Shown: positions 14,028 through 41,324, numbered from the stretch's first letter. The stretch: 64,000 nucleotides of DNA from Candidatus Omnitrophota bacterium (GCA_023819035.1 JAMWCL010000001.1:2226-66225), one strand, 5' to 3'. Made by a program: numbers and translations. Notes: a model not told the origin generated them from the letters alone.

Positions 14028-14031
14028 CTTA

Positions 14032-14649: not shown

Positions 14650-14653
14650 TTAG

Positions 14654-15367: not shown

Positions 15368-15386
15368 TATTTAACTTAATTCTATA

Positions 15387-20008: not shown

Positions 20009-20010
20009 CT

Positions 20011-22219: not shown

Positions 22220-22994
22220 TTTGCTTTATGCTTTTATTTTGAAATTCCCAAAGTTTTGCATAAGTAATGAACAGCAGCAAACCAGAAGCAAAACTAATGA
22301 ATAATCCACGCCATCCGTCTTTATAACCTCTTAAAAAAATATACTTATACAATAATACAAAAATTGGTTTTATAAAAAAATAAATAAAAAAATTAAATCG
22401 GTTTAATCTTACTCCGTGCAGATAATATTGCTTGGCGATACCAAGGCTATAAAGATTTAACTTATCAATGTATTGCTCAAAGGAGGTGTAACTGTAATGT
22501 AAAAGGTGATTCTTCAGATAACCTACCCGCGTTTTATCAACTATCTTTGGTGTATCATCAATCACTATTGATATCGGCCATTGGGTTATACCTTTGCGAA
22601 ACAACCTTATTATATAATCAGGATACCAACCACATCCTCTTATCCATTTTCCCAAAAAGAAGTTTTTACGATTTATATAGTAACCTAGCATATCTTTGTT
22701 TTTTATAGCAGATCTTATTTCCATGGCTAACTCGGGACTAACTACCTCATCACCATCTAAACTTAAGATCCAATCTCCGCCTGCTTTCTCAATACCTAAA
22801 TTTTTATTTTTATGAAAATCCCCTTGACTGTCATGAATAAAGACTAAAGGAGTATAGAGTCTACAAATCTCAACCGTCTTATCAGAGCTTACATCATCTA
22901 CTATCACTATCTCATCAGCCCATTTGACTGATTCCAAGGTTCTTTTTATATTCTTCTCTTCATTCTTAACCGCAATCACTACCGATAATCTCAT
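22212..22994 (-). CDS. Glycosyltransferase family 2.
   Basis: LSVVIAVKNEEKNI...IVIVDDVSSDKT...DGDE; C-terminal hydrophobic segment. Confidence 0.75.
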   Translation of the reverse strand: MRLSVVIAVKNEEKNIKRTLESVKWADEIVIVDDVSSDKTVEICRLYTPLVFIHDSQGDFHKNKNLGIEKAGGDWILSLDGDEVVSPELAMEIRSAIKNKDMLGYYINRKNFFLGKWIRGCGWYPDYIIRLFRKGITQWPISIVIDDTPKIVDKTRVGYLKNHLLHYSYTSFEQYIDKLNLYSLGIAKQYYLHGVRLNRFNFFIYFFIKPIFVLLYKYIFLRGYKDGWRGLFISFASGLLLFITYAKLWEFQNKSIKQNV

Positions 22995-23056
22995 TTTTAG
23001 AATTTTATAAATTAATTTAAGATATCTTTGTCTTTAAAAATCCTTCCTTGCTTGTC

Positions 23057-24511
23057 CTAAAAAATCTTTAGCTTCTGCTTAAAAAACCTAAAATACCTAC
23101 CTATGATTATCCTTTCCTCATCATCAAAATATTTAATAATATAAAGAAGGATTAAATAAGCGATGCCAGCAAAAGGGACGATTACTATAAGATTAACCTT
23201 TAGATGTTCTAATAAAATAACTAATATACCCATCAAAATAGCAGAGAAAATTGACTTTAATATCATTGCTAGGGGAAGATATTTAAATTCTTTTTCTATC
23301 ACCATGTAAAAAATAATTGAAAAAAGAATCTCCGAAACTACAGTGGCAGAAGCTGCACCGATATAGCTATATTTAGGTATAAGCATAAGATTAAGTAAAA
23401 CATTAGTTATTACGGTAAAGGTAAGCATCTTGGCAATAAGCAACTGACGAGCAACCGAGGTAAGAAAGTAACCGATAAAACTGTTTAGAAAACTAAAAAT
23501 AATAATTGGAGAAAAGATCTTAAAGACAATTGCGGATTGTTGATAATGTGGACCGAAGATAAGATTAATTATCCTATCCGCAAGCAGAAAACACCCTAAA
23601 GAAAGGGGAATCCCCATAGCAATTATTACCTTAAATGATTTCTCATAAATTTTTTTTAACAGCGTAAAAGATTCTTTTGATAATCTTGACAAAAGTGGAA
23701 ATACCGCAGAAAGAAAGGCTCCCGAAAGAACCGCAAGGGTATAAAATAAATGATAACTAACACTATATCTTCCCGCTATCTCTTCGCCCTTCATCTTTCC
23801 CAACATCACGATATCAATATTAAAATAAACCATAGAAAGTAAAGCAACAATGGCTAAGATACTGCTTTCTTTTAATATATTTTTCCATAAAAAGAGATTT
23901 ATCTTATAATTCGGTCTAAAAAACCGCAAGTTAACTATAAGCATATTGGCTAAAAAAATTAATACCCCGCTAAAAAGATAAGCCAGACCTATACCGGTGA
24001 TCCCATACTTTTTAGAGATCAGGATAAAACATAACAAAAATAAAAATGCCTTTTCGGTTATATCAGATAATACCACATAGATCATCTTCTGGTATGCTTG
24101 AAAGACCGCTTTAAATAAACCTCCCATATTCTCAAAGAGTAAATAACCAGCCAATAGATAAACAATTAATCCTGTCTCATAAGGAACCCGGATAAGCTTT
24201 AAAGCAAAAATAATTATTGTAAAGGTAAAAACTGATAATAATCCCTTTAATATAACCGCATTTCCTATATATACATCCGCCCCTTCCCGGTTGCGTGCTA
24301 CCTCCCGGATACTTAAGGTAATTATTCCTAAGTCCGCAAATAATAAAAAAAGCCCCACAAAGCTAATGGCAAAACTTAATCTCCCAAAATCTACCGTTTC
24401 CAGATTACGGGCTAAATAAACTGTTAATAAAAAGGATATGAGCCTGGCAAAAACACGTTGGAATAAAAGCCAGAAGGTATTAATAAATACTTTGCTAAAA
24501 ATATCTTTCAT
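23057..24511 (-). CDS. wzx: Polysaccharide/O-antigen flippase (Wzx, MOP superfamily).
   Basis: 484-aa protein with about 12-14 transmembrane helices in the Polysacc_synt layout. Confidence 0.7.
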   Translation of the reverse strand: MKDIFSKVFINTFWLLFQRVFARLISFLLTVYLARNLETVDFGRLSFAISFVGLFLLFADLGIITLSIREVARNREGADVYIGNAVILKGLLSVFTFTIIIFALKLIRVPYETGLIVYLLAGYLLFENMGGLFKAVFQAYQKMIYVVLSDITEKAFLFLLCFILISKKYGITGIGLAYLFSGVLIFLANMLIVNLRFFRPNYKINLFLWKNILKESSILAIVALLSMVYFNIDIVMLGKMKGEEIAGRYSVSYHLFYTLAVLSGAFLSAVFPLLSRLSKESFTLLKKIYEKSFKVIIAMGIPLSLGCFLLADRIINLIFGPHYQQSAIVFKIFSPIIIFSFLNSFIGYFLTSVARQLLIAKMLTFTVITNVLLNLMLIPKYSYIGAASATVVSEILFSIIFYMVIEKEFKYLPLAMILKSIFSAILMGILVILLEHLKVNLIVIVPFAGIAYLILLYIIKYFDDEERIIIGRYFRFFKQKLKIF

Positions 24512-25534
24512 TTAAGCTATTTTATCTTTTATAAAAGAGATTAATTCCTTCATTCTCTGAACATAGGTATGCTCTAAATATGCCCGTTGCTGTCCACGCA
24601 TAGAGATCTCCTGTCGCTTCTGGGGATCTCTTAAATAAAAATTAATCAATTCTCTTAATTCATCCTTATCCTTAAAACAGACTATCTCTTGGTTTATCTT
24701 AAAGAAATCTTCCAGACCATTTACATAGTCGGTAAGTAAGAATGCACCGCAAGCAGTTACCTCAAAATCACGCATAATCGGACAGGTCTGTGGTGAATGA
24801 ATATTAAGCACTATCTTTGCAGCATTATAAACCTTAACCAGCTCTTTGCCCCAAACCTGCTGACCAGTAAATTTATTATACAAAGGAGAGTTTTTAGGAA
24901 TAGGCTCTTTTATAATCTTATAATCCTGCTTAAGATAATAGATAAATCTTGGTGCCCAAATCTTGATATCAAAATCCACCAACCACTCAAAAACCTTTGC
25001 CCTTTCTGGATTAACTGTACCAGAAAAGCAGATATCACTGCGGTATTGTTTTAATTGTCCTGGTGAGAGACTAATCTTTTTGTGGATATTGGGCATACAG
25101 CCGAAGGTAAGAAAAGCAACATTGGGACAGCCTGCATCTTTATGTACATTAACGCTATTTATATCATTGGTAAAAAAGAAGTCATAAAGAGGAGATAATT
25201 TACGAGAAATCTCAAGACGATAGGGATCATCTATCCAATAGTTTGCAAGAGGTATTTTAAATCTTTTCTTAATATATATAATGACATCTTTAGGAATTAT
25301 ATCTCCTTTTATCACTAATATTAACTTTGGCTTAAAGGAAAGGATTTTATGATAAAGCCTTTCTTTTATATAAAAATCTTCTAAACCTTCTAAGATGCCA
25401 AATCGTTGCCAGATTCTATGCTTAAAGTATTTAAAGTCATCTACTCTATAACCGATCTCTTCTAAGGCAAGCTTGCAATAATTGCCTAACTCAAATGCTG
25501 TTCTTGTCCAAGGAAGAATCAACAATATCCTCAT
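24512..25534 (-). CDS. CgeB-family (Glyco_trans_1_2) glycosyltransferase-like protein.
   Basis: C-terminal RDFEVTACGAFLLTD matches the CgeB/DUF3880-associated motif. Confidence 0.5.
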   Translation of the reverse strand: MRILLILPWTRTAFELGNYCKLALEEIGYRVDDFKYFKHRIWQRFGILEGLEDFYIKERLYHKILSFKPKLILVIKGDIIPKDVIIYIKKRFKIPLANYWIDDPYRLEISRKLSPLYDFFFTNDINSVNVHKDAGCPNVAFLTFGCMPNIHKKISLSPGQLKQYRSDICFSGTVNPERAKVFEWLVDFDIKIWAPRFIYYLKQDYKIIKEPIPKNSPLYNKFTGQQVWGKELVKVYNAAKIVLNIHSPQTCPIMRDFEVTACGAFLLTDYVNGLEDFFKINQEIVCFKDKDELRELINFYLRDPQKRQEISMRGQQRAYLEHTYVQRMKELISFIKDKIA

Positions 25535-25554
25535 TGCCTTTACTTCTGATTTTT

Positions 25555-26565
25555 TTAGATTTTTTTAGCTACAACACTTAAATTACCACCCAACTTAATT
25601 ATATCCATAAATCTTCCCAAGCCAAAAAAGATAAGATATTCTATATAATGAAAAAATACCTTCCCGGAAGAAAAACTAAAAGGCTTAAGCAAGGTAAAGT
25701 CAACTGGATTGAAATTATCTTCTCTAGATAAGATTGGTCTACAATTATATAACCCGAGATCACCTAAAAGATATCTTAAGCTTTCTGAATATTCAGCCAT
25801 ATATTTAGTATGTGTAGATATAAATTTAAATTCTATAGGAGAGAATTTACAGATTATTAAAATTTTTTCTAATGTGCGACGAGTGAAGTGATATAGATGT
25901 AAAGGAGCACTTATGCCTAACCATTTATCTCTAAAAATAAAAGAAGAAAATCCTCCAAAGTTAGGAACCTCAATAACAACAATCCCATCTTCTTTAAGTA
26001 TCAAATGGATCTTTCTTAAGGTCGCAACCGGATCTCTAAGATGTTCAAGACTGTGGATAAGACTAACTACATCAAAGAACTGCAAAGGATAACTGGCCTC
26101 TTCTATATCTCCACAAGAAATATCTAAACCAAATCTTTCTTTAGCAAACTGCACTGCTTTAGGGTTTAATTCTATCCCATAGGTCTGCCAACCCAAATCT
26201 TTCAAAAATTTTAAAAACAAACCATCCTTACAACCAACATCTAAGATTCTGCCGGATTTTTTATATTTCAAGATAGATCTTGCCTTAAGCTCCATCATAC
26301 TCTGATTAGGCGTTTCCCAAATAAAAGATTTTTTCATTTTGATATTATCGTATATCCGGCTTTGATATTCATTTAAATAATACCGAAAAAGTTCTTGTTT
26401 TATGGGACGGGGGTTAACATATACTAGACCACATGACTTACACTTTACAATCCTAAAGAACCCGCCTTTTTCATTAGTTCTATCTTTGGCAACAAAAAGA
26501 AGTTTTGAATTATCTTTACCACACAGATTACATCCTACAAATTCTTGAAAAGACTTTCTATTCAT
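25555..26565 (-). CDS. Class I SAM methyltransferase with Zn-ribbon (paralog 2).
   Basis: CNLCGKDNSKLLF...CKSCGLVYVNPRP; ILDVGCKDGLF SAM motif. Confidence 0.7.
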   Translation of the reverse strand: MNRKSFQEFVGCNLCGKDNSKLLFVAKDRTNEKGGFFRIVKCKSCGLVYVNPRPIKQELFRYYLNEYQSRIYDNIKMKKSFIWETPNQSMMELKARSILKYKKSGRILDVGCKDGLFLKFLKDLGWQTYGIELNPKAVQFAKERFGLDISCGDIEEASYPLQFFDVVSLIHSLEHLRDPVATLRKIHLILKEDGIVVIEVPNFGGFSSFIFRDKWLGISAPLHLYHFTRRTLEKILIICKFSPIEFKFISTHTKYMAEYSESLRYLLGDLGLYNCRPILSREDNFNPVDFTLLKPFSFSSGKVFFHYIEYLIFFGLGRFMDIIKLGGNLSVVAKKI

Positions 26566-27562
26566 CTATATCCTTCTTTGCGCATACATATAAATTATCT
26601 CCATTACCTATTATGTCCATTAAACCTGCTAATGGATACAATAGGATTGATTCTGCTTTATGTAATACCTTCTTTAGGAGGTCCTTAAGAATCTGTTTAT
26701 CGATTAATGCATAATTTTTAGAAGAGATTGATTTTAGAGAGACATCTCGGGCAGGATACAGGTGATGTTTTCTTAACCAGTAACGCAAACTTTGTGAATA
26801 ACCTGTAGTAATATCTAAATGATTTAAATTTGACATACTGAATAATGCAAGAATTTTAAAACCTGCCTTCTTTAACATTTTCTTTAAGTGATCTTTAGTA
26901 AACTGCATAAGATGACGAGGCACATCTAAAATATGCCAACTATCCTGAAAGAGAATCCTCTGAAAGCTTAAAAAATTAGGTACAGTAATCACTAATATTG
27001 CCTCATCTTTAAGCATATATCTTATTTTTAATAGAATAGAAAGCGGATCATATAAGTGTTCTAAGACCTCAAACATACAGATAATATCAAATAATTCCTT
27101 GCCAGGATTAAAATCAGCAATCGAACCTGTAAATACATCTATACCCAGAACCTCCCTGGCATAATTAGAGGCATACTCTGAGATCTCTACCCCAAATACA
27201 GAATAACCTTTTTCTTTTAAGAACTTAAGAAAAAAGCCTTCACCACAACCTATTTCTAATACCTTTCCTTTTTGCTTATATTTTGAGATTGGCTTATAGC
27301 GATTCTCTAAGATTTTTTTTAACTTAAAGTTATAGATATTACTCAGATTAACCTTGGCAGAAATGCGGGAGAAATATTTAGGTGGATAAAATACCTGGAT
27401 GGCTTGAATGGTTGGCCGGGGATTGACATAGACAAATCCACAAAGATTACACTTTACTACCCTAAAAAACCCATCGATATCCCAAATGATATCTCTGGCA
27501 ATATATACTAACTGCGTATCATCTGCTCCGCATAGATAACAATTTATATATTCTGTCTCCAT
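26558..27562 (-). CDS. Class I SAM methyltransferase with Zn-ribbon (paralog 3, tandem duplicate).
   Basis: CYLCGADDTQLVY...CNLCGFVYVNPRP; VLEIGCGEGFF. Overlaps paralog 2 by 8 nt. Confidence 0.7.
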   Translation of the reverse strand: METEYINCYLCGADDTQLVYIARDIIWDIDGFFRVVKCNLCGFVYVNPRPTIQAIQVFYPPKYFSRISAKVNLSNIYNFKLKKILENRYKPISKYKQKGKVLEIGCGEGFFLKFLKEKGYSVFGVEISEYASNYAREVLGIDVFTGSIADFNPGKELFDIICMFEVLEHLYDPLSILLKIRYMLKDEAILVITVPNFLSFQRILFQDSWHILDVPRHLMQFTKDHLKKMLKKAGFKILALFSMSNLNHLDITTGYSQSLRYWLRKHHLYPARDVSLKSISSKNYALIDKQILKDLLKKVLHKAESILLYPLAGLMDIIGNGDNLYVCAKKDIDE

Positions 27563-31028: not shown

Positions 31029-31820
31029 TTGTTTTATATGAGATATATATTAGAATTTAATAAGGTTACAAAAATCTTTTATCCTCCTTTTTCCTTTAAA
31101 AACCCCTTAGATTTTCTTTCCTCCCAAAAAGCTATCCTTGCCCTCAATAATATCACCTTCCAGCTTCGGGAGGGGGTAATCTTAGCGGTCCTTGGACCAA
31201 ACGGCGCAGGCAAAACCACCCTGCTTAAGATTATCTCAACCTTAATCCTGCCTGATTCAGGAACAGTCAAGATAAAAGACTTAATCTTAGGCAAGGATGA
31301 CTTAAGGATTAAATCCTTAATAGGATGGGTTGGCTCTTCGGAGAGGGGATTTTATCCAAGGCTTACCGGAAGACAGAATTTAGAGTTCTTTGCTTGTCTT
31401 TATGGACTAGATAAAAAAAAGATAAATCTACGTCTTCAAGAACTCTTTAAATTTTTTAAGATAGACTACCAAGATAAGCGCTTTGATACCTATTCTTCAG
31501 GCATGCAACAAAAATTTGCTTTGATGCGTGCGCTTCTACATGATCCGGAATTATTACTTTTAGATGAACCCTTAAAGAGTCTTGATTATACCACCGCACT
31601 AAATTTAAGAAATTTTATTAAAGAACATTTGGTAAAGGAAAAAAACAAAACGGTCATCTTTACTACCCATCGCATGGAAGAGGCGGTTGACTTTGCAGAC
31701 TTATTTATGATCCTGGTAAAAGGCTATCTTTATGGCTTGGGGACATTATCCGAGTTGAGAAAAAAGGTTAATAATCCTTCAGCAACCCTAAGTGAGATAT
31801 TCTTAAAATTAACCCAGTAG
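31029..31820 (+). CDS. ABC transporter ATP-binding protein.
   Basis: Walker A GPNGAGKTTLLKII, signature SGMQQK, Walker B LLLLDEP. Confidence 0.8.
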   Translation: MFYMRYILEFNKVTKIFYPPFSFKNPLDFLSSQKAILALNNITFQLREGVILAVLGPNGAGKTTLLKIISTLILPDSGTVKIKDLILGKDDLRIKSLIGWVGSSERGFYPRLTGRQNLEFFACLYGLDKKKINLRLQELFKFFKIDYQDKRFDTYSSGMQQKFALMRALLHDPELLLLDEPLKSLDYTTALNLRNFIKEHLVKEKNKTVIFTTHRMEEAVDFADLFMILVKGYLYGLGTLSELRKKVNNPSATLSEIFLKLTQ

Positions 31821-31824
31821 AACT

Positions 31825-32634
31825 GTGTGGTTAAGAAAGATAATCGGTTTTTTAAAAAAGGATTTTCTATTAGAATCCAGTTATCGCTTCAGTTTTTTCT
31901 TTGATATCTTTGGCATCCTCATAAATATCTCTATCTATTTTTTTATTGACCGGCTCTTTGAACAAAGATTGGTAGCGCATCTAGAAGAATTTGGTGTAAA
32001 TTATTTCTCTTATGTTATCTTAAGTTCAGCGGCATTTAGTTATATCGGAATCGGTATGGGGTCCTTTGCAGAACGCATCCGTAGCGAACAGGTCCAGGGC
32101 ACATTAGAGACAATCCTTGTTACCCCCACAAGGACTGCGGTGCTTGTTTTTTCTCTTATAATATGGAGCCTGTTTTCTGCTACCTTGGAATTATTTATGT
32201 ATATAACCTTAGGAATCTTTTTATTTAAAATAGATCTTACCCATCTAAATATCTTATCCTGCATAATTACCCTTTTGCTTATTATTATCTCCTTTAGTAG
32301 CCTGGGGATAATCTCGGCAAGCTTTCTTATTGTTTTTAAACGGCTAAACCCCTTAAGTTGGTTGATAGGAAGTTTAGAAGGGCTTCTTGGAGGGGTTTAT
32401 TTTCCGATCACGGTATTACCGGGCTGGCTACAGTTTATTGCGCGGTTCTTTCCGATTACCTATGCTATCCGTGCTATCCAGTTAGCTGTCTATAAAGGTT
32501 ATCACCCTATGCAACTAAGCAGGGAGCTGGGTTTTCTCTTTCTATTTTCAATCTTACTTTTACCTATAAGCATCTTTATATTCTGGAAGAGTCTATATAG
32601 GTCTAGAAAAACCGGCACCTTAGCGCATTATTAA
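31825..32634 (+). CDS. ABC-2 type transporter permease.
   Basis: 269 aa with 6 transmembrane helices, starting 4 nt after the ATPase gene. Confidence 0.7.
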   Translation: MWLRKIIGFLKKDFLLESSYRFSFFFDIFGILINISIYFFIDRLFEQRLVAHLEEFGVNYFSYVILSSAAFSYIGIGMGSFAERIRSEQVQGTLETILVTPTRTAVLVFSLIIWSLFSATLELFMYITLGIFLFKIDLTHLNILSCIITLLLIIISFSSLGIISASFLIVFKRLNPLSWLIGSLEGLLGGVYFPITVLPGWLQFIARFFPITYAIRAIQLAVYKGYHPMQLSRELGFLFLFSILLLPISIFIFWKSLYRSRKTGTLAHY

Positions 32635-34941
32635 AGCCTTTGGAAGAAAAAGAGAGGCGCGCTTAACCCTTTCCCAATAGCCTGCGGGCGTCATCTTTGG
32701 GGGAAAAAGCGAACGGAATAAAAACCTTAATCTTTGCTTTAGATTCTTTTGGTCTGACAAATATACCGCATAATAAAGAGGTATTTTTTGATGCTTCCCT
32801 TTAAGCACTGAATTTAAAAAAACCTTCTCTAAGTAACTTAACCTTTCTGGCTTTATACAAGAAAAAACCTGCGGAGGCACTTCAGCAGAAAAGATCTCTT
32901 TTACCAGATAAAGACTAAGATAAACAATTCGAGTAAGGTTAAATTCCTCAGAGAGATTCATCAGCTTCTCCCAATCTATCCTCTCCTGATAAACCTGAAT
33001 TAACCTGCTTATCTCCCAGAGAAAAACCCAGTTTTGATAATTATGCTTCAGGCTATGCTCACACATAAAGATTATCTGCATCTCAGGATTAAGACAGAAG
33101 ATATTTTGGTAATGCTTAAAAGGGATAACCTCTAACCAAACCTTATCCATATCTATCTTATTTTTCTGGGTAATCAGTAAAAATAGATTATTTATGGGAT
33201 TAAGATGGATATGTAAGGCAGGATAAGAACTATCCTTATGGAAATAATAACGACTATTTAGGTGTTCGGGAATCGGATAAACCTGCAGTTCTTGTAAATA
33301 AGAATAACCCTTTTCTTTAACCGCCTCCTCTAACCTAAAGATATCCTTTTCTTTTACAACCAGATCTATATCTGAGCGCGGACGCAGATAACCCTGCGGG
33401 TAGATCAATATATCTATAGATGGACCTTTAATAAGCAATATTTTTATACAGAGGGTATCTAAATACTTAAGCAGTTCGGTCAGATGCTGGGTAAAATAAA
33501 TACTTTTTGCCATCTCAGTATAATAGGCATCTCTAAAATTCTCAGATACATATTCATCAAAAAGATTATATTGCCTGTGTAAGGAATAAATCTGTTGATA
33601 AAAAGGATAAAAAACAAGTTCTTTTTTGGTCTTATCTAAGATATAGCTCCAATCCATCGCAGGTTGCTTTATCCTTTTTAATATCTCAGCCGAATCCCTT
33701 AAACCCCTTCCACTGATAAGATCAATGATCAACCTATCCTCTTCTTTATTATCTGTGTGGACAGGTTTATCCCTTAAGATGAGCTCAGCGATATGGATAC
33801 CCCCTTCAAGATTGGTCTTTATTAACCTCAGGCCTGCGGTCTTAAATTCCTTTTCTATCTCCTTAATATTAGAAAAGATATGGCAGAAACACATGCTATT
33901 CATCTTACTTAGTGGTGAAACCGTCCTTATCCAGATATCCCCTGGCTCAAGAAAATAATGCGGAAAAAGACAGTTTAATATCTTGCGAAAAAGTCTATAA
34001 AATGTATTAAAGGATAAAAATTTATTATTTGCTATATAAGCACCAAAAAAGATTAAGCCATCTGGCTTAAGGCATCTTTTAATGCGTAAAAGGGTTTTAA
34101 TCCGCAAGGTGCGCGAGGGAATAAAGGAATAAAGGATTCGATCAAATAAACAGTAATCAAATGTGCAGGAAGGAAAATCTATCTCAGAAGCAGAAACTAA
34201 TTTAAAATGGATATCTAATCCTTGCGCTTTGGCTTTGCTCTGTGCCTTTTTGATCATCTCAGGTGCGATATCTATGGCAGTGACCTTAAAACCTAATTTG
34301 GCTAAGGCAAGTGCTTCCCTGCCAGCTCCGCAACCAAGATGAAGTATGGAAGTGCCCTCCTTAAGATACTCCTTAACCATTATCCTCTCCCATTCCTCCA
34401 AACCTAAATCCGCATTTTGCCCACAAAAATCTACCTCCTCTTTCTGATTAAATTTATCCCTTACAGTAGATAAGGACTTTTGGGGACTGCTGATTAAAAA
34501 CTTAAGGTTAAATGCAAAATTCAATTTTAAGCCCAGCGACCTACGCTTTAACAAAAATAGACACAATCCCTTAAAAACAGGAAGACAATTCCATATAGAT
34601 TTAAGCAGATAATCCCAGGGATCTTCGATATTAATTAACTGCTTAGACCTTTTCAAAAAAATTACCTTGCCTAAAATATCCTCAAAGGGTACAGTTAAAT
34701 CAATCTTATCCGTAAAATCTCCTTGAAATATATAATAGAGCTTACCCTTAAAATTCCTTATTTCTATTAAACGATGTACTACATTTTCTTGGGTATCCTT
34801 ATTCTTATATGCAAGGATATCTCCTAATCTTATATCTGTATTTGCGGTTAGGGGTTGCACAAAGACTAAATCGCCCTCTTTAATCAAGGGTTCCATACTT
34901 ACACCCTTTGCCTGGAAGGTAAGAATATTTGGTTTTTCCAT
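32620..34941 (-). CDS. Tri-domain fusion protein: S24/S26-like serine peptidase, class I SAM methyltransferase, PF14907-type (NTP_transf_5) nucleotidyltransferase.
   Basis: N-terminus KGVSMEPLIKEGDLVFV (Ser nucleophile block). Middle ILHLGCGAGREALALAKLGFKVTAIDIAPEMI. C-terminus LLIKGPSIDILIYPQGYLRPRSDIDLVV (hG[GS]...DxD nucleotidyltransferase fold). Confidence 0.7.
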   Translation of the reverse strand: MEKPNILTFQAKGVSMEPLIKEGDLVFVQPLTANTDIRLGDILAYKNKDTQENVVHRLIEIRNFKGKLYYIFQGDFTDKIDLTVPFEDILGKVIFLKRSKQLINIEDPWDYLLKSIWNCLPVFKGLCLFLLKRRSLGLKLNFAFNLKFLISSPQKSLSTVRDKFNQKEEVDFCGQNADLGLEEWERIMVKEYLKEGTSILHLGCGAGREALALAKLGFKVTAIDIAPEMIKKAQSKAKAQGLDIHFKLVSASEIDFPSCTFDYCLFDRILYSFIPSRTLRIKTLLRIKRCLKPDGLIFFGAYIANNKFLSFNTFYRLFRKILNCLFPHYFLEPGDIWIRTVSPLSKMNSMCFCHIFSNIKEIEKEFKTAGLRLIKTNLEGGIHIAELILRDKPVHTDNKEEDRLIIDLISGRGLRDSAEILKRIKQPAMDWSYILDKTKKELVFYPFYQQIYSLHRQYNLFDEYVSENFRDAYYTEMAKSIYFTQHLTELLKYLDTLCIKILLIKGPSIDILIYPQGYLRPRSDIDLVVKEKDIFRLEEAVKEKGYSYLQELQVYPIPEHLNSRYYFHKDSSYPALHIHLNPINNLFLLITQKNKIDMDKVWLEVIPFKHYQNIFCLNPEMQIIFMCEHSLKHNYQNWVFLWEISRLIQVYQERIDWEKLMNLSEEFNLTRIVYLSLYLVKEIFSAEVPPQVFSCIKPERLSYLEKVFLNSVLKGKHQKIPLYYAVYLSDQKNLKQRLRFLFRSLFPPKMTPAGYWERVKRASLFLPKALIMR

Positions 34942-34942
34942 C

Positions 34943-35806
34943 TTAAAATATCTTTTTTATAAAATCTACTATTCTACGGTCAGGATAAAAACCTAATTCA
35001 TATACCGGGATATGCCAGATTAATTCTCTATAAAAATCTAAAACAAAATCCATAGCTTGCTTATCCCACCAGGGAACGAGGCTACAAACTAAAAGCTTGC
35101 TGATTGCTTCTGAAAGAGACATCCTTTTTATATGATTTCTCTGGGCATGCCTAAGCAGAAAGAGCCCTTTTAAATTAGCCTCTTCAGAGGAATAAACCTG
35201 AACATCTCCATGCCAGGGTGTACCAAAGACCTGAAATCCAGTATCCTTCTTTCTAAGAATAACTCGCTCATCGCTTAAAATAGAAAGATCATTCTTAAGT
35301 AAGCTGGCTAAGGTGCTTTTTCCCATCCCTGAGCTACCTGCAAAAAGAATGCCTTCGGTATCCTTTTTTATCCCACAACTATGAAGCATTACCCCTAACC
35401 GGCGATAGGTAAGTAATCCTAAAAATAGAACCTCATCTAAAGGATATTCCCAGAAATTAAGCATAAACCCTTCTGGAAGGTCTTCCCTTAAATAAACCTC
35501 TCCCGAACGAAAATCCCTCTCAATCACCGCCATCTTATATAAATTCGGCTTTAAGTCCAGAGAATAAAAATTAAAGATAAGTTTTTTATCCCGGTAAAAG
35601 ACATCCCACTGCCGGTAAGCACTAAAGAGCTTTTTTTGATTTTTAAAAAAAGGAAGGTAACGTTTAAGCTTTAATACGAGATCTGCACTTTTTTTTGAGA
35701 CAAAGCCAAGATAAGCCTTCGGAGGGGTAAGGGTAAGATTATCCTCACCAAGAAGCTCAACTACAATATCTGCAATGGCAAATCTAAATTTATCATTTTT
35801 GCCCAT
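34943..35806 (-). CDS. HPr kinase-related (HprK C-terminal domain-like) peptide kinase.
   Basis: P-loop GILFAGSSGMGKSTLASLL resembling the HprK GxSGxGKSE motif. 287 aa, no HprK N-terminal domain. Confidence 0.7.
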   Translation of the reverse strand: MGKNDKFRFAIADIVVELLGEDNLTLTPPKAYLGFVSKKSADLVLKLKRYLPFFKNQKKLFSAYRQWDVFYRDKKLIFNFYSLDLKPNLYKMAVIERDFRSGEVYLREDLPEGFMLNFWEYPLDEVLFLGLLTYRRLGVMLHSCGIKKDTEGILFAGSSGMGKSTLASLLKNDLSILSDERVILRKKDTGFQVFGTPWHGDVQVYSSEEANLKGLFLLRHAQRNHIKRMSLSEAISKLLVCSLVPWWDKQAMDFVLDFYRELIWHIPVYELGFYPDRRIVDFIKKIF

Positions 35807-35848
35807 GAAGATAAACTGGCCAAGGAATTCTTAGATAGCCTTAGCAAA

Positions 35849-36013
35849 TCAGGAGCCTACGGTTTTACTTGTGCAAGCCGATGAAGACCGACATCTTGCT
35901 GGTGACTTATTTGTTCCAGAGGCAGATTTGCAGTTAGCTAAGACCACCTCGGGGGGAACTAAATCTACCTGTTTTATCTGGGGTTTAAGATAGGGCTTTT
36001 TCCCCGGCTTCAT
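35849..36013 (-). CDS. Candidate RiPP precursor peptide (54 aa; absent from the ORF track).
   Basis: ATG at 36013-36011 overlaps the rSAM stop codon as ATGA. Strong Shine-Dalgarno AAAGGAGGAGG 4 nt upstream. Translation: MKPGKKPYLKPQIKQVDLVPPEVVLANCKSASGTNKSPARCRSSSACTSKTVGS. Lys/Pro-rich leader-like N-terminus; Cys/Ser/Thr-rich C-terminal core. Confidence 0.45.
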   Translation of the reverse strand: MKPGKKPYLKPQIKQVDLVPPEVVLANCKSASGTNKSPARCRSSSACTSKTVGS

Positions 36014-37086
36014 CTTGCCTCCTCCTTTCTTAGAAATACCTGATGCCGTAAATGGGCTATCTGACAGAGATAATCGATGGGGCTGGATAAATCCTTATTC
36101 TCTAACCAGGACCAACCCGGACATTGATCACAGATATAAGCTACCTCACAACAAAGACATCGTTCATTAAAAGCGTATCTTTGGTTACGCAGTTTAAAAA
36201 GAAAATTGTTAAAGCCTTCTTGAAAACTACCCTTAAGAAGATCATAACTAAAACTGCGTAGCATACTACAGATCTGGAGCTGTCCATAAGCATCTATATG
36301 AAAAGAGATTAAGCCTGCATGGCAAAGAAAAAGCTGTTGAGGATTTAAAACCTGAGAAAATTGTTGGCAAAACCTTAACCAATCCTTATGCCGCGCCTCA
36401 TCTTTTAGATCCAAATCTATTACCTCTTCAGGAGAGAGTCTAAAACTGCAAGGCTGGCGACTACCATCGAGCCGAGGGTTAATTATAGGGTCAAAACGAA
36501 AATCCACACCTAAGCCTTCTGCGTATTCCTTTATCTGAAAAAGCTCCTCTTTATTTAAGGTAGTTACCGTGGTCTTTAATTTAAAAGGAACCTTTCTCTC
36601 TAATAAAAGCTCTATCCCCCTTTGGCAATCCTTGAAGGAGCCTTTTATACCCGTAACCTGCTCGTAAGTATGGGAGGTGATTCCATATAAACTAATCTCT
36701 ATCTGAAAAGGAGGATAATCCTTAAGATAATCCGCTAAATAGGGAGTAATCAAGGTAGCATTGGTAAAAAGGGTAATAATTAAACCCTTCTTTTTAGCAT
36801 AGGTATAGATCTCTAAGAAATCCGGTCGCAAAAGGGGTTCTCCCCCGGTAACTAATAACCAAAGGCAACCTGCCTCAGTAATCTCATCAAGCACACCACA
36901 GATCTCTCTAAGCCCCATCTCTTTTTTATGAGGATCAGAATAACAATAGCAATGCCTGCACCTTAAATTACAGCGCAGAGTAACCTCAAGGGTGCCCTCA
37001 ATAGGTAGGCGTTCTTTTATCGCTTTCTCATGAATCCTATTACTAAATTCCTCGTAGCTAACCTTATCTATCCCTGAACAATCCAT
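36010..37086 (-). CDS. Radical SAM enzyme with SPASM domain (peptide-modifying maturase family).
   Basis: CNLRCRHC (CxxxCxxC). C-terminal SPASM cysteines CHAGLISFHIDAYGQLQIC and CLCCEVAYICDQCPGW. Confidence 0.85.
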   Translation of the reverse strand: MDCSGIDKVSYEEFSNRIHEKAIKERLPIEGTLEVTLRCNLRCRHCYCYSDPHKKEMGLREICGVLDEITEAGCLWLLVTGGEPLLRPDFLEIYTYAKKKGLIITLFTNATLITPYLADYLKDYPPFQIEISLYGITSHTYEQVTGIKGSFKDCQRGIELLLERKVPFKLKTTVTTLNKEELFQIKEYAEGLGVDFRFDPIINPRLDGSRQPCSFRLSPEEVIDLDLKDEARHKDWLRFCQQFSQVLNPQQLFLCHAGLISFHIDAYGQLQICSMLRSFSYDLLKGSFQEGFNNFLFKLRNQRYAFNERCLCCEVAYICDQCPGWSWLENKDLSSPIDYLCQIAHLRHQVFLRKEEAR

Positions 37087-37371
37087 CTAACCAACCTCCT
37101 GGATGGCATTTATCTGCTTTAATTTATTAAGAAATTCCACTAAGTCTTTTTCTAACTGTTCCGTATCCACCTCAAATTCTTCGGTTAGCTTATCCTTTAT
37201 CTCAGCAAGGCTTTTTCTACCATCGATTAATTCCCAGATCCTTGCCCCTGACTCATTTAAGGTATATATACTGGGTAAATCCGTAGCTTTACTTTTTAAA
37301 GGAACCAGAATCATCTCTCCAGAGATCTTACGAAAGATAAATTCCGGGCTTTTTATATAGATTTTTTCCAT
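37087..37371 (-). CDS. PqqD-family protein (RiPP recognition element).
   Basis: 94 aa; YTLNESGARIWELIDGRKSLAEI...LVEFLNKL matches the PqqD consensus. Stop abuts the rSAM start. Confidence 0.75.
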   Translation of the reverse strand: MEKIYIKSPEFIFRKISGEMILVPLKSKATDLPSIYTLNESGARIWELIDGRKSLAEIKDKLTEEFEVDTEQLEKDLVEFLNKLKQINAIQEVG

Positions 37372-37388
37372 ATAAATTATTATTCTTT

Positions 37389-38222
37389 TTACCAGGTCTG
37401 TATTTCCTTACTTGTATAGGCACCCTTGGCAAGGGGCTCTAAAACCTGATTAAGAAAGTAAGTTAGATTAGAGATAAATTTTTTGGGGATAAAGATGATA
37501 TCTTCTGCTTGCAAACTGATATTCTGACGCAGATCACCCTTTAATGCCTTGGTTAGATTCAGTCTCTTAGCCTGGGGTTTTTCAAAACCTCCCCGGATCA
37601 AGATTACACTGGAAGCCACTGCGTCGCGCGTAAAACCACCCGCCAGCCCGATTGCCTCTAAAATAGTCCTTGCTCCACTAACCGCATAAACCCCCGGTCT
37701 GACCACCTCACCTAAAACAATCACCTTTTTACCACCTAACTTCTTTAAAGAAATAGAGACCTCAGGAAAACGGATATACTCTTTTAACCGCTCAGTAATT
37801 ATCTCATCAAGTTGGCTAAGGGTTAATCCCTTTGCCGGAATATCGCCAATCAAAGGAAAGGATATCCTTCCGTCTGGTCTTACAATTACATCCATCGTTA
37901 AATCCGGATTCTGCCAGACCAAAATATATAAAACATCATCCTCACCGATAATGTACTCGGTTTGTATCGGTTTTTCTGCGGGTTTGCTGGTTAAGGGGGT
38001 TACCCCTTCTTTAGTCTCCGATTCCTTTTCCTTTAAAATCTCGATTGCCTTTTGAAATTCCTCTTGTGCCTCAGTGTATCTACCTTGATCGTAATAAATC
38101 TTTCCTCTTTCATAATATTTAAGCGCCTCATCTCTTCTTTCCTGGCTGTAAACAAAGGGAGTAAAAACTAAAAATAAAATAATAATTATTATCCTTTTTA
38201 AAAGAGGCATTCCTTTAAACAT
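37389..38222 (-). CDS. Polysaccharide export protein (Poly_export + SLBB, Wza/KpsD-like periplasmic) with N-terminal TPR.
   Basis: Signal peptide; IIGEDDVLYILVWQNPDL...RPDGRISFPLIGDIPAKGLTLSQL...SISLKK...VIVLGEV. Confidence 0.7.
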   Translation of the reverse strand: MFKGMPLLKRIIIIILFLVFTPFVYSQERRDEALKYYERGKIYYDQGRYTEAQEEFQKAIEILKEKESETKEGVTPLTSKPAEKPIQTEYIIGEDDVLYILVWQNPDLTMDVIVRPDGRISFPLIGDIPAKGLTLSQLDEIITERLKEYIRFPEVSISLKKLGGKKVIVLGEVVRPGVYAVSGARTILEAIGLAGGFTRDAVASSVILIRGGFEKPQAKRLNLTKALKGDLRQNISLQAEDIIFIPKKFISNLTYFLNQVLEPLAKGAYTSKEIQTW

Positions 38223-39262
38223 TCCTCAATATAAACCTCTGGCTTCTGGGATAAATCAATCTGCTTGGGTTGGGTTAATCTCTTTCCTGTAGAATCTAAG
38301 ACTACCTCTACCACTGGTCGCAAAGGAAGCTGGGGATTCTCTTTAATTACTGTGCCTATCTCTTTGGTATTTAATCTCACCGCCACCCCTATAGGAAAGA
38401 TACCCATCCTTTCCATAAGCACCTTTATCAGTTTATTATCGAAGGTTTCTTTAAGTTCTAAAATCTTCTGGATTGCCTCTAAGGGGGTGTACTTTTGACG
38501 ATGAGGCCTTTTATGTAAGAGCGCCTCATAAACATCTAATAAACCGATAATCCGAGCATACTCCGAGATCTGCTCACCCTTTAATCCCAAAGGATAACCC
38601 GAGCCATCTATCCGTTCGTGTTCCTGACGCACCGCCTCGATTATCGAGACATTCAAATCTTTAGAAAATCTTGTTAATATCTGGGAGCCAAGATTGGGAT
38701 GATTCTTTATCTTATCCATCTCTTCTTTACCTAAGATGTAATTCTTATTAATGATATCTAAATACTTCACTATCCCGATATCATGGACAAAGGCGGCAAT
38801 TCCTAACTCTAAGAGTTGCTCTCTTTCATAGCCCAATGACCTGCCAATCTCTAAAGACATGATACAAACATTTAAGGCATGGGCATAAAGATAATCTTCC
38901 TCTTTGTCATAATCCTTAACCGAAAGTCTCAGTAACGCCTCTTTATTTGGAGAAAAAAGAACCTGCAGGATCTTTTCTATTAGCTCCTTTATCCAAGGAA
39001 CAAAACATTCTTCCTGCCCCCTTAAATAAATATGTTTTACCCGCGCCAGAATCTCTTCGTATAAAGAAAAAATCTCGTTACTTTCTATCTTAGAAAAGCT
39101 CTTACAAATAGCCGGGGATATCTTTATAGGAATATGGTCAGATTCTGAACTAGGCTTTTCTGGAAGGGCGGTTTCATTCTCTTCCTGCTCTATCTCTTCA
39201 GGTACAGGTGTCTTTTTAAGAAGTCCTTTATATTTTTTTAAAATCTCAGAAAGCCTCAACAT
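38198..39262 (-). CDS. HD-GYP domain c-di-GMP phosphodiesterase.
   Basis: HDIGIVKY and HERIDGSGYP motifs. Confidence 0.8.
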   Translation of the reverse strand: MLRLSEILKKYKGLLKKTPVPEEIEQEENETALPEKPSSESDHIPIKISPAICKSFSKIESNEIFSLYEEILARVKHIYLRGQEECFVPWIKELIEKILQVLFSPNKEALLRLSVKDYDKEEDYLYAHALNVCIMSLEIGRSLGYEREQLLELGIAAFVHDIGIVKYLDIINKNYILGKEEMDKIKNHPNLGSQILTRFSKDLNVSIIEAVRQEHERIDGSGYPLGLKGEQISEYARIIGLLDVYEALLHKRPHRQKYTPLEAIQKILELKETFDNKLIKVLMERMGIFPIGVAVRLNTKEIGTVIKENPQLPLRPVVEVVLDSTGKRLTQPKQIDLSQKPEVYIEECLKECLF

Positions 39263-39273
39263 ACCTTCTCCTT

Positions 39274-40113
39274 TTATTTGGGTAAAGGTCCTAAATCTTG
39301 AAGACCACCCGCGGAGCTTAAATCTTCGTTTACCTTCAGGATAGTGTCTCGGTCAATAAACTTTAAACCATTACCAAAACCAGTTAATAAGGCTAAATCG
39401 CAGATGGTATTAATTAAGCGGGGAACTCCCCGCGAAAAATGATAGATCTGACCAAAACAATCCTCCTGAAAAATCTCCCTTTTTGCCTCTGCTACCCTAA
39501 GCCGATGCAGGATATATTCTTTAGTTTCAATTTCATTTAATGCTTTAAGATGAAAACGCATCGCCATGCGTTGATTTAACTGAGGCAGATTAACAATAAT
39601 ATCCTTTAACTCCGGCTGGCCTAAAAGGATAATCGTAAGTAAAAAAACATTATCGAGTTGAAAATTTAAAAGGAGTCTTAATTCCTCAAAGATCTCCCTA
39701 TTCCCAATTGCCTGGGCTTCATCAACCACAATTACACAATGCCTTGCTTGCTGATAGTTAGTGTACAAGATGTTATGCAAAGAATGAAATAAATCTAACC
39801 TATTTGTAGGGATCTCATTACTATTTAACTGATACACAATCTCCTGAATTAATTCTAATCCACTGAGTCGAGGATTCAGGATAAATACCGCCTGGTATTT
39901 GTTTTCCTGTTGAAGCTCATGCCAGAGCACCCGACTTAAAAGGGTCTTACCACTTCCATACTCACCTGTAAAAATGGCAGCCCCTTTTCGCTCCCGGACA
40001 ACATAAAGCATCCTTGCTAATGCCTCATTATGTTGCTGGGAATGATAAAGAAACCTCGGATCAGGGGTATTATCAAAAGGCTTCTCCTTTAAACCCCAGT
40101 ATTCCTCGTACAA
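39274..40113 (-). CDS. ExeA/GspA-like AAA ATPase (paralog B).
   Basis: Walker A GEYGSGKTLLSRVL, Walker B VIVVDEAQ. Confidence 0.65.
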   Translation of the reverse strand: MYEEYWGLKEKPFDNTPDPRFLYHSQQHNEALARMLYVVRERKGAAIFTGEYGSGKTLLSRVLWHELQQENKYQAVFILNPRLSGLELIQEIVYQLNSNEIPTNRLDLFHSLHNILYTNYQQARHCVIVVDEAQAIGNREIFEELRLLLNFQLDNVFLLTIILLGQPELKDIIVNLPQLNQRMAMRFHLKALNEIETKEYILHRLRVAEAKREIFQEDCFGQIYHFSRGVPRLINTICDLALLTGFGNGLKFIDRDTILKVNEDLSSAGGLQDLGPLPK

Positions 40114-40126
40114 TTCTTCTCTCCTT

Positions 40127-40999
40127 TTAAAGACTATTCTTATGTAAAAGTTGATCCCGGCGTGTCCAGCCGGTCCTGATCTCTTCCTCCACTATCTGAC
40201 GCACACAATCAGCATCTACTACTACCTTATTCTTCAGTACCAGATTTTTTAAGCACTTATGACAGAGCATGGTTATCTGACGGGGATAGCCTCGGCTATA
40301 TTGATAGATCTGCCGTATTGCTTCCTCTAAAAAAAGATGCATACTGGCTTTATAACCCGCCTGTCTTATGCGAAATTCAATCATCTCCTTTGCTTCTGCA
40401 AAATCTAAAGGGTTAAGGGTATATTTAAAGCTTATGCGGTCAAAAAAATTGGGGATATTCATAATCTTAGCATGCAGTTCCAATTGACCTAACAATACCA
40501 ATTGCAGAAGCTTAAACTCATTGGTTTCATAATTTAAAAGAACACGGAGAACCTCTAAAGATGCATCACTTAATTTCTGTGCTTCGTCAATAATTAAGGT
40601 GATAATCTTATTTTCACTTACGCCTTTTTGAAAAAGAAACCTCTCCACCGCTTCCCTAAGATCTAAGATAGTAGCTGGTTTATCTGAGGAAGGTAAGGCA
40701 ATCTCAAAATTTCTTACTAAAGAAGTAAGAAACATATATTCATCATCAAAAGAAGGGTCTAAAATAATGTGAAAGATAAAATCTCCCCTTGCCTTTAATT
40801 CCTGAATAAGTTTGCGGGAAAGGGTGGTCTTTCCGGTTCCGATATCTCCTAAGATAACCGAAAGCCCCCTTTTAAGTCTAAGTTCAATGAGGATATTAGT
40901 TAAGGCGGTCTGGTGTTCCTTAGAGAGATAAAAGAAGTCAGGGTCAGGGCTAGTGGAGAAAGGCTCTTTTTCAAAACCTAATATTCGATAATAGCTCAT
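40127..40999 (-). CDS. ExeA/GspA-like AAA ATPase (paralog A).
   Basis: Walker A GDIGTGKTTLSRKL, Walker B LIIDEAQ; tandem with paralog B. Confidence 0.65.
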   Translation of the reverse strand: MSYYRILGFEKEPFSTSPDPDFFYLSKEHQTALTNILIELRLKRGLSVILGDIGTGKTTLSRKLIQELKARGDFIFHIILDPSFDDEYMFLTSLVRNFEIALPSSDKPATILDLREAVERFLFQKGVSENKIITLIIDEAQKLSDASLEVLRVLLNYETNEFKLLQLVLLGQLELHAKIMNIPNFFDRISFKYTLNPLDFAEAKEMIEFRIRQAGYKASMHLFLEEAIRQIYQYSRGYPRQITMLCHKCLKNLVLKNKVVVDADCVRQIVEEEIRTGWTRRDQLLHKNSL

Positions 41000-41029
41000 T
41001 ATCTTCGCTTATAATTAGGCTATTATTAG

Positions 41030-41056
41030 ATTATAGTAAATAATCCTCTTTGTCAA
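41030..41056 (-). promoter_or_regulatory. Near-consensus sigma-70 promoter upstream of the ATPase/HD-GYP/Wza/RiPP gene string.
   Basis: Minus strand TTGACA (41056-41051), 15-nt spacer, TATAAT (41035-41030). It sits in the 91-nt gap before the ATG at 40999. Confidence 0.45.
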
Positions 41057-41090
41057 GGGACAAATACCCCAAAGCCAGCCAATTTCTTTT

Positions 41091-41318: not shown

Positions 41319-41324
41319 AAACCC

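Follow-up and report, generated by a model that had tools for sequence, protein, structure and literature searches.

Organization of the Locus

A 64,000-nt stretch of DNA from a Candidatus Omnitrophota bacterium (GCA_023819035.1 JAMWCL010000001.1:2226-66225), which is part of a contig of a metagenome-assembled genome (MAG) and is called here the window, contains nine head-to-tail minus-strand open reading frames (ORFs) running from position 40999 down to 32620 (Table 1). The first four, referred to below as the head module, encode two ExeA-like AAA+ ATPases, an HD-GYP-type phosphodiesterase and a short OPX (Wza-like) protein. The remaining five form a cassette for a ribosomally made peptide that is modified after translation (RiPP): a PqqD-family protein, a radical SAM (rSAM)/SPASM maturase, a precursor peptide, a ScmC-family P-loop protein and a three-domain fusion protein. 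The coordinates match those of a preliminary description of the locus made from the sequence alone, and the domain calls of that description (ATPases, HD-GYP, Wza-like TPR/Poly_export/SLBB, PqqD, Radical_SAM and, at 12089-12505, PilZ) are all confirmed by Pfam and NCBIfam.

Successive genes are spaced by +13, +11, -25, +17, 0, -4, +42 and +1 nt, in agreement with the range of -25 to +42 nt given earlier. The intergenic gap upstream of the first gene (41000-41090, 91 nt) is among the largest of the window and contains, as was also noted earlier, a sigma-70-type promoter sequence, which proves to be a perfect match and stands at the border between housekeeping genes and a polysaccharide locus. 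Perfect TTGACA-N15-19-TATAAT sequences occur twice in the 64 kb, compared with 0.10 expected from shuffled sequences, and two were reached in none of 100 shuffles. The second copy, with a 16-nt spacer, ends 5 nt ahead of an FMN riboswitch that precedes the riboflavin operon. Lying so close to the riboswitch, this copy shows that the consensus denotes at least one real promoter of the organism, and it serves as an internal control.

No terminator-like sites are present in the junctions between 40999 and 32620; those detected are intragenic and are not enriched (11 vs 12.0 expected). An Rfam E-value scan of 30000-42000 returned neither a riboswitch nor a leader RNA, be it 5' of the first gene or between genes, and the 42-nt gap 3' of the precursor gene is no more stably folded than shuffled sequence (z = 0.82). 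The sequence is compatible with a single transcript running from 41056 to about 32620, and the head genes and the cassette would be co-transcribed from the promoter in the 91-nt gap.

Table 1. Features of the window, with positions counted from its first nucleotide.
Feature	Position	Strand	Details
Second perfect promoter sequence	56348-56375	-	TTGACA-N16-TATAAT
FMN riboswitch	56228-56343	-	precedes riboflavin operon
ribBA	54882-56090		riboflavin operon
Predicted lipoprotein	41091-41318	-	75 aa; LVGC lipobox; Lys/Glu-rich coiled coil; directly upstream of promoter
Sigma-70-type promoter	41030..41056	-	TTGACA 41056-41051, 15-nt spacer, TATAAT 41035-41030
ATPase1, ExeA/GspA-like AAA_22 ATPase	40127..40999	-	290 aa; extra paralogue; AAA_22 E 1.7e-19
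ATPase2, conserved ExeA-like AAA+ ATPase	39274..40113	-	279 aa; Walker A GEYGSGKT, Walker B DEAQ
HD-GYP-type phosphodiesterase	38198..39262	-	354 aa; HD_5 89.5 bits vs 27.2
Short OPX (Wza-like) protein	37389..38222	-	277 aa; signal peptide, one TPR, Poly_export, one SLBB
PqqD-family peptide chaperone (RRE)	37087..37371	-	PqqD 72.9 bits
Radical SAM/SPASM peptide maturase	36010..37086	-	358 aa; Radical_SAM 77 bits
Precursor peptide	35849..36013	-	54 aa; start overlaps rSAM stop codon by 4 nt
ScmC-family P-loop protein, HprK/PEPCK kinase fold	34943..35806	-	287 aa; PF27840 (precomputed Pfam)
Fusion protein	32620..34941	-	773 aa; Sec11/SipW-type signal-peptidase-like domain, class I methyltransferase, NTP_transf_5
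DrrAB-like ABC exporter, convergent	31029..32634	+	ATPase 31029-31820; ABC-2 permease 31825-32634
Wzc-like chain-length determinant/BY-kinase	29009-30910	-	
Wzy_C-family polymerase	27593-28936	-	
Variable lower-GC part	18031..27562	-	methyltransferases, glycosyltransferases, Wzx flippase
Conserved sugar block	12993..18027	-	GT4 (stp2/BshA-like), 493-aa CehA/McbA-like metallohydrolase, WbqC, PIG-L/BshB1-like deacetylase, WecA-like initiating transferase
493-aa protein of the sugar block	15387-16868	-	no Pfam match; CehA/McbA metallohydrolase match sub-threshold
162-aa protein of no assigned family and PilZ-domain protein	12089..12993	-	PilZ 12089-12505, 48 bits
c-di-GMP-I riboswitch	3809-3908	+	64 bits vs gathering score 35

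The Peptide Cassette

The rSAM protein has an invariant CxxxCxxC motif (C39, C43, C46) and seven invariant SPASM Cys (C255, C273, C310, C313, C319, C322, C341). Its nearest solved relatives are SkfB (2e-17) and PqqE, and it reaches no NCBIfam cut-off. The family is large, with 5950 proteins at E<=1e-10, and the best non-self matches are 53-64% identical. A pattern scan found 394 rSAM relatives among GTDB species representatives; ORFs were called in the 80 best loci, which were searched with the window proteins and to which the counts of loci given below refer.

In the precursor, the conserved leader K[KR]xYxKPxIxxVxLxPEEAVLxxCK leads into a core of ~27 aa rich in Gly, Ser and Thr. Exactly three Cys are present in 45 of 48 precursors. 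All 48 terminate in Ser (44) or Thr (4), and Gly-Ser is the usual ending. Three Cys and an invariable C-terminal Ser/Thr fit a sequence of thioether crosslinking and then phosphorylation of the C-terminus, perhaps with phosphoglycosylation, of the kind found in some lasso peptides.

A candidate for the phosphorylation is the ScmC-like protein. Its P-loop, GxSGxGKST, is invariant (G157, S159, G162, K163, T165), and its AlphaFold2 (AF2) model (pLDDT 94.4) matches PEPCK (E 5e-6) and HprK/P (E 5e-5 to 1e-3) in Foldseek. Matches to the HprK_rel_B, HprK_rel_A and ScmC families are weak (TIGR04249, 28.2 bits vs a cut-off of 125), and a sequence search against PDB gave no significant match. In the adjoining fusion protein, the peptidase domain is of the Sec11/SipW type and is devoid of an N-terminal membrane anchor; it passes the cut-off of TIGR02228 (60 bits vs 51.85), and the other two domains score 111 bits (NTP_transf_5) and 63 bits (Methyltransf_25). 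Homologues of the methyltransferase domain occur in just 3 of the 80 loci, as a separate gene. The partner of the SipW-like peptidase varies: it is methyltransferase plus NTP_transf_5 in the window, a GNAT acetyltransferase in one locus (L164:9495-10421) and NTP_transf_5 alone in several others.

The convergent ABC exporter lies next to the cassette, the 3' end of the permease gene overlapping that of the fusion gene by 15 nt. A promoter-like site precedes the exporter (30985-31012), and a second one faces Wzc (30960-30932), making this a divergent promoter region. The pair resembles DrrAB, lantibiotic-protection or PmtA transporters.

The Polysaccharide Locus

The genes that follow belong to polysaccharide synthesis. 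The components of a Wzx/Wzy-dependent locus are all found: OPX, PCP-2a/BY-kinase, Wzy, Wzx and a WecA-like initiating transferase, all between housekeeping flanks. The flank upstream of the promoter encodes LigA, an MBL-fold protein, a XerC/D-like protein, PolyA_pol and DUF503, and the genes past the distal end (nitroreductase, nucleoside transporter) are unrelated to the locus. The presence of the OPX-to-WecA set between these flanks identifies the four genes of the head module as the head of a Wzx/Wzy locus of ~29 kb that spans 41056 to 12089; the peptide cassette and the ABC exporter are placed in it between the OPX and PCP genes.

The two parts of the locus beyond Wzy differ in conservation. 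Genes of the variable part are essentially devoid of orthologues beside the cassette elsewhere, one weak GT4 match apart. GC content is 0.32-0.34 at 22000-28000, compared with 0.37-0.40, which is typical of horizontally exchanged serotype-specific regions. Orthologues of the sugar block, at ~200-340 bits, lie beside the cassette in Nitrospinae, Aminicenantes, a Pseudomonadota-labelled locus (L039) and two Omnitrophota loci. The block accompanies the cassette even in loci devoid of Wza, Wzc and Wzy. Its 493-aa protein is among the most faithful neighbors of the cassette (8 loci, 317-343 bits), and one orthologue (L027:3258-4727) has a weak PHP match.

The Head Module

Both ATPases pass the AAA_22 cut-off (PF13401, 70.8 and 72.9 bits vs 27) and fall below that of TIGR03015 (178 bits for ATPase1 and 224.9 for ATPase2 vs 324.5). 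They are 32% identical. An ATPase1 orthologue in tandem position (525 bits) is present only in the closest relative, L161. ATPase2 is the widespread member, with 5955 homologues at E<=1e-20, the best 120 of which are 64-91% identical; G53, G55, K56, T57, D131, E132, A133 and Q134 are invariant in 40 ATPase homologues. Its AF2 model (pLDDT 84.5) shows a compact AAA+ fold with a lid, for which the top Foldseek matches are Orc1/Cdc6, MuB, TnsC and RuvB. The T2SE family (GspE/PilB motor type) is absent from the ATPase domain matches, and a motor fold was not found. Only P-loop NTPase-type domains are found in the two ATPases, neither of which has a transmembrane segment or a peptidoglycan-binding domain. 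From the model, we read ATPase2 as an AAA+ protein of the initiator clade or switch type that would act in switching or assembly and not as a motor for export.

The names 'ExeA' and 'general secretion pathway protein A' are attached to ATPase2 homologues in source records, and an AAA_22 domain and an N-terminal PF..TPDP.F motif are indeed shared with ExeA/GspA, known from Aeromonas ExeAB of type II secretion. ExeA has a role in secretin assembly; the Aeromonas protein possesses a C-terminal transmembrane segment and a periplasmic peptidoglycan-binding domain. The window ATPases, of 279-290 aa, differ in having neither, and the window encodes no secretin and no GspB/ExeB. Unlike ExeA, the window-type ATPase is almost always paired with an HD-GYP gene.

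The HD-GYP protein has a variable N-terminal region of ~120 aa and a conserved C-terminal extension of ~70 aa. The HD, HE and DGxGYP motifs are unchanged across 22 orthologues (D161, H215, E216, G220, G222, Y223, P224). In the window the motif reads EHERIDGSGYP, with Glu in place of the first His of HHE, which is present in about half of the orthologues. There is no Response_reg match that would indicate an RpfG-type REC domain. The protein probably lowers cyclic di-GMP (c-di-GMP). A c-di-GMP-I riboswitch elsewhere in the window indicates that the organism uses c-di-GMP. The invariant HD/GYP motifs and this riboswitch together make c-di-GMP control of the locus plausible.

The OPX protein has a visible N-terminal hydrophobic leader and scores 86.5 bits with Poly_export (PF02563), 52.9 with SLBB_2 and 40.9 with SLBB. 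It remains below the cut-offs of TIGR03027 (129 vs 180 bits) and of the E. coli Wza model NF011658 (92.5 vs 333 bits), and has one SLBB only. The protein is proposed to partner Wzc and Wzy.

The preliminary description offered two possible roles for these proteins: that the ATPases and the Wza-like protein make up a dedicated route for export or assembly of the modified peptide, or that they couple the peptide to exopolysaccharide production. The position of the genes, directly upstream of the cassette and probably co-transcribed with it, their co-occurrence with the cassette, and the fact that in other Omnitrophota the head follows two secretin genes, an arrangement reminiscent of ExeA in secretin assembly, would all suit the first, taken as a route that spans the envelope. 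A soluble 279-aa ATPase of the Orc1/Cdc6/MuB/TnsC type is, however, a poor candidate for such a route, the more so as the OPX gene is accompanied by Wzc and Wzy and the cassette has its own ABC-2 exporter. Head modules are also found in the absence of the cassette and cassettes in the absence of the head, as described below. A dedicated peptide route is thus very unlikely, whereas coupling to exopolysaccharide is better supported, since Wza, Wzc, Wzy and the sugar block recur beside the cassette.

Conservation of the Neighborhood

Lineage labels of the rSAM relatives include Omnitrophota, WOR-3, Aminicenantes/Acidobacteriota, Desulfobacterota, Nitrospirota, Nitrospinae, Chloroflexota, Planctomycetia and KSB1. 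The core of the cassette is widely kept: with rSAM in all 80 loci, PqqD is found in 76, the ScmC-like protein in 68, the peptidase in 56, the precursor in 47 and NTP_transf_5 in 37. PqqD is encoded immediately upstream of the rSAM gene in most loci, and the peptidase and nucleotidyltransferase are either separate or fused.

An all-against-all clustering of 1172 neighbor genes gives an unbiased ranking of the non-core families. ABC ATPase (29 loci), HD-GYP (23), ExeA-like ATPase (21) and Wzc (19) are the most frequent, followed by ABC-2 permease and Wza (14 each), Peptidase_C25 (12), Wzy (10), GT4 (9), the 493-aa protein and DegT (8 each), PIG-L and WecA-like (7 each) and WbqC (6). Searches with the window proteins gave slightly higher counts for the ABC-2 permease (16) and Wzy (11). 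The ExeA-like ATPase lies within 10 kb of the rSAM gene in its 21 loci. When only the 26 loci with at least 9 kb on both flanks are considered, 10 have the ATPase or HD-GYP, 10 have Wza, Wzc or Wzy, and 8 have both. The cassette is thus recurrently co-located with the ATPase/HD-GYP pair and with polysaccharide genes. The preliminary description had named absence of these genes from each other's vicinity in other genomes as the result that would speak against it; the ATPase and HD-GYP are instead found near the PqqD/rSAM cassette in many genomes. A link to the PilZ protein, which it also listed, is weak and does not hold as a general feature, since none of the 80 loci has a PilZ homologue close to the cassette.

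The co-location extends across at least five phylum-level lineages, with varied gene orders. Head and cassette are colinear in Omnitrophota and in the Pseudomonadota-labelled locus. In Aminicenantes, an ATPase-HD-GYP-WbqC-PIG-L-DegT-WecA operon is divergent from the cassette, and in five loci (four Desulfobacterota and one Omnitrophota, L002) HD-GYP and ATPase flank the cassette on both sides. Orders that differ so between lineages speak against one operon having simply been inherited. The core cassette is also present in L067, a locus connected with Desulfomonile tiedjei. The HD-GYP alignment was also used to scan metagenomes, a pattern so generic that only the top ~8 loci are informative; among the matches listed, the closest (L081-L084) again show an adjacent ATPase and parts of the cassette.

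Large Peptidase_C25 (gingipain-like) proteins adjoin the cassette or an NTP_transf_5 gene in L047, L053, L068, L071, L074, L077 and L165. These loci are from Acidobacteriota, Chloroflexota and one Omnitrophota, and have no polysaccharide genes.

The head module was also followed in its own right, on seven long contigs with ATPase2 homologues (L161-L167). The order ATPase, HD-GYP, TPR/Poly_export/SLBB is the same in all seven, and in five a coiled-coil gene of about 550-650 aa, missing from the window, stands between HD-GYP and Poly_export. What comes after OPX varies. A PqqD/rSAM/ScmC cassette is present in four of the seven; in L161 and L163 it is of the SynChlorMet (SCM) type, with PqqD, a 64-65-aa peptide, two to three rSAM genes and ScmC, and in L164 it is a window-like variant with an S24 peptidase plus GNAT and NTP_transf_5. 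The precursors of L161, L163 and L164 share the leader KPxIxx[IV]KLxxExA[VI]L, with Cys after it and Ser at the C-terminus. Elsewhere OPX is followed by Wzc-Wzy-ABC-2 only (L162), NTP_transf_5 and a C25 peptidase (L165), TpsB and a 3485-aa protein (L166), or GT2-DegT-PMT_2 and a B12-rSAM (L167).

A further gene cluster precedes the head module in L162, L163, L165, L166 and L167, and the ATPase in L010 and L042. It encodes a secretin, a protein of ~1000-1280 aa (mostly TPR), a 75-aa MerR-like protein, a second secretin, a TPR protein and a protein of ~190 aa. The window has the second ATPase paralogue in place of this secretin/MerR cluster.

These comparisons bear on a different explanation of the co-location, namely that a variable, recombination-prone slot after the head collects unrelated cassettes, as in capsule serotype regions. 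The peptide would then be a secreted RiPP of the usual kind, such as a bacteriocin resembling sacti- or ranthipeptides, served by an ABC exporter or immunity pump of its own, and a shared promoter would be its only mechanistic connection with the polysaccharide and with the ATPase/HD-GYP pair. The differing content past the head in L162, L165, L166 and L167 is what such a slot would produce, and the lower GC in the middle of the window locus, the kind of transporter that the ABC pair resembles, and the occurrence of the cassette alone in Acidobacteriota and Chloroflexota loci also agree with it. A slot in one type of locus does not readily account for co-location in at least five phylum-level lineages with different orders, including divergent operons and bracketing of the cassette, nor for the rank of HD-GYP and ATPase among the commonest non-core families. 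It is also at odds with the presence of a specific sugar block beside the cassette where Wza, Wzc and Wzy are missing. We consider such collection of the cassette, with no functional coupling, unlikely, though the most probable of the alternatives, ahead of a peptide built into the glycan and of a dedicated export route. Head and cassette are separable, yet they are frequently co-localized.

Comparison with Known Systems

On sequence grounds, the window cassette is a distant relative of the SCM cassette (TIGR04248-04251, PF27840), which is itself uncharacterized and is mentioned in none of the papers searched. A PqqD homologue and an rSAM/SPASM protein are common to both, the ScmC-like protein has its precomputed PF27840 match beside the low TIGR04249 score, and relatives of the window that have the head module carry SCM-type cassettes with two to three rSAM genes and the same leader type. 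SCM has two rSAM/SPASM proteins (ScmE, ScmF) in addition to the PqqD-like ScmD, whereas the window has one rSAM gene. All SCM models score far below cut-off here: in addition to ScmC, given above, ScmE/ScmF reach 66-79 bits vs 400 and ScmD 21.7 vs 100. The SipW-like peptidase, NTP_transf_5, methyltransferase, ABC-2 exporter, precursor family and polysaccharide-locus setting go beyond SCM. To our knowledge, the curated SCM description identifies no precursor.

An rSAM/SPASM enzyme, a separate or fused RRE and a Cys-containing core are shared with sactipeptide and ranthipeptide maturases (SkfB, AlbA, PapB). No family cut-off of these classes is reached, and tailoring by a kinase and a nucleotidyltransferase is atypical of them.

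In lasso peptides, a kinase phosphorylates the Ser at the C-terminus, and a nucleotidyltransferase adds hexose to the phosphate (PMC8498205). The tailoring pair (the paeninodin PadeK-type HPr-kinase homologue and pseudomycoidin PsmN) is likewise an HprK/PEPCK-fold P-loop kinase beside a nucleotidyltransferase-family gene, and its substrates end in Ser, as do precursors of the window family. The similarity of the ScmC-like protein to HprK-related families is weak (E 1e-7 to 1e-8). Lasso systems also have an Asn-synthetase-like cyclase and a transglutaminase-like B2 protease; neither family is found in the window locus, where rSAM/SPASM is the class-defining enzyme.

A more far-reaching proposal is that the polymer itself would include the modified peptide, which would prime, anchor or cap the polysaccharide that is exported. 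NTP_transf_5 or the BshA/PIG-A-like GT4 would glycosylate its phospho-Ser, and PIG-L would follow with de-N-acetylation. The cassette has both a ScmC of kinase fold and an NTP_transf_5 domain, all 48 precursors end in Ser or Thr, and the phospho-hexose on the C-terminal Ser of pseudomycoidin offers a chemical parallel; GT4, PIG-L, WbqC, DegT and WecA-like genes are conserved beside the cassette, which in the window sits between OPX and PCP genes. With its WecA-like initiator, however, the locus already contains a lipid-linked Wzx/Wzy route that is complete, the cassette also occurs in genomes with no glycan genes nearby, and SCM-type cassettes are chemically uncharacterized. A peptide built into the glycan is accordingly decidedly unlikely.

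XrtA/PEP-CTERM loci provide the best NCBIfam matches of several proteins: ATPase1 and ATPase2 (TIGR03015), OPX (TIGR03027), the Wzc-like protein (chain-length/kinase families TIGR03007/03018) and the conserved GT4 (TIGR03088). In both systems a polysaccharide locus goes together with a ribosomal product with a conserved C-terminus; the partner is a sorted protein in XrtA/PEP-CTERM and an rSAM-modified peptide of ~55 aa in the window. We know of no HD-GYP gene that is part of the XrtA/PEP-CTERM system as described. The Haft 2006 paper does not mention the ATPase.

Membership fails for each of the systems compared, either at curated cut-offs or in defining components, and literature searches returned no paper describing the cassette or its embedding in polysaccharide loci.

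A Model for the Cassette in its Locus

We favor, at a probability of roughly 0.55, the reading that 41056-32620 is the first transcription unit of the ~29-kb Wzx/Wzy locus, made up of the conserved head and, in the variable part that follows, an SCM-related peptide cassette that acts together with the polysaccharide. One promoter would drive the ATPases, HD-GYP, OPX and the cassette. PqqD would bind the conserved leader of the 54-aa precursor and present it to the rSAM/SPASM enzyme, which would crosslink the three conserved Cys, probably as thioethers. The ScmC-like kinase would then phosphorylate the C-terminal Ser, NTP_transf_5 may add a sugar to the phosphate, and the SipW-like peptidase domain would cleave off the leader, leaving a product to be exported by the convergent ABC-2 transporter. 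The ATPase/HD-GYP pair is most plausibly a regulatory or assembly switch of the locus, linked to c-di-GMP.

Several points weigh against this model. The promoter spacer is 2 nt below the usual optimum, so the promoter, called strong in the preliminary description, is at best presumably so. Tight spacing on a common strand is usual across the window, where 49 of 59 same-strand junctions are 42 nt or less (median 3 nt) and the minus strand carries 61 of the 69 genes; it is thus weak evidence for an operon. Neither head nor Wza, Wzc or Wzy is seen, at the thresholds used, in 16 of the 26 loci with full flanks, which makes the association lineage-dependent, and the head occurs with no cassette at all in L162, L166, L167, L085 and L091. 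Some of the taxonomic labels may be wrong, since the loci are on MAG contigs. The scores of the XrtA/PEP-CTERM families are all below curated cut-offs in the window, and the 64 kb encode no exosortase or PEP-CTERM proteins; membership in the exosortase/PEP-CTERM system was rejected on these grounds. The resemblance of the ScmC-like protein to HprK is at the level of fold (TM 0.3-0.5), with weak sequence scores. The roles of the enzymes are predicted, and we infer each enzymatic step, as well as the action of the peptide in the polysaccharide pathway, whether through co-regulation or a physical link.

Other Features of the Window

The 75-aa predicted lipoprotein gives no match in Pfam and lacks homologues in the 80 rSAM loci. 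The scan of roughly 60 window proteins revealed no exosortase, secretin or GGDEF protein in the 64 kb, and the rest of the window is housekeeping. The c-di-GMP-I riboswitch lies in a 460-nt gap between two genes of the minus strand, for a BNR-repeat protein (2166-3713) and a CHAT-TPR protein (4176-6368), and only plus-strand ORFs of 40-43 aa are found downstream of it.

Implications

RiPP cassettes are usually taken as stand-alone antibiotic or signal loci. Here, polysaccharide loci repeatedly contain members of a large uncharacterized cassette family, with a c-di-GMP phosphodiesterase and an ExeA-like AAA+ ATPase as neighbors, in phyla of which few representatives, or none, are in culture (Omnitrophota, Aminicenantes, WOR-3 and Desulfobacterota). 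The results provide SCM-type cassettes with a candidate precursor family, and they include a chemical prediction: crosslinks at three Cys and, on the C-terminal Ser, a phosphate that may or may not bear a sugar. They also shift the 'secretion ATPase' label of thousands of ExeA-like proteins towards a role as switch or regulator.

In its most ambitious form, which we regard as unlikely, the finding would be a widespread system (at least 394 species representatives and at least 10 phylum-level labels) in which a peptide, crosslinked by rSAM and phosphorylated and then glycosylated at its C-terminal Ser/Thr, is held covalently in a surface polysaccharide, with a c-di-GMP-responsive AAA+/HD-GYP pair switching its assembly and export. 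If true, this would be a ribosomally templated pathway to peptide-glycan conjugates, with a logic like that of PEP-CTERM/exosortase sorting or of GPI-type GlcNAc transfer and de-N-acetylation. The arrangement of the genes suggests a mechanistic tie between production of the biofilm matrix and peptide modification, and the broad distribution of the cassette and the C-terminal Ser/Thr of every precursor make it worthy of experimental follow-up.

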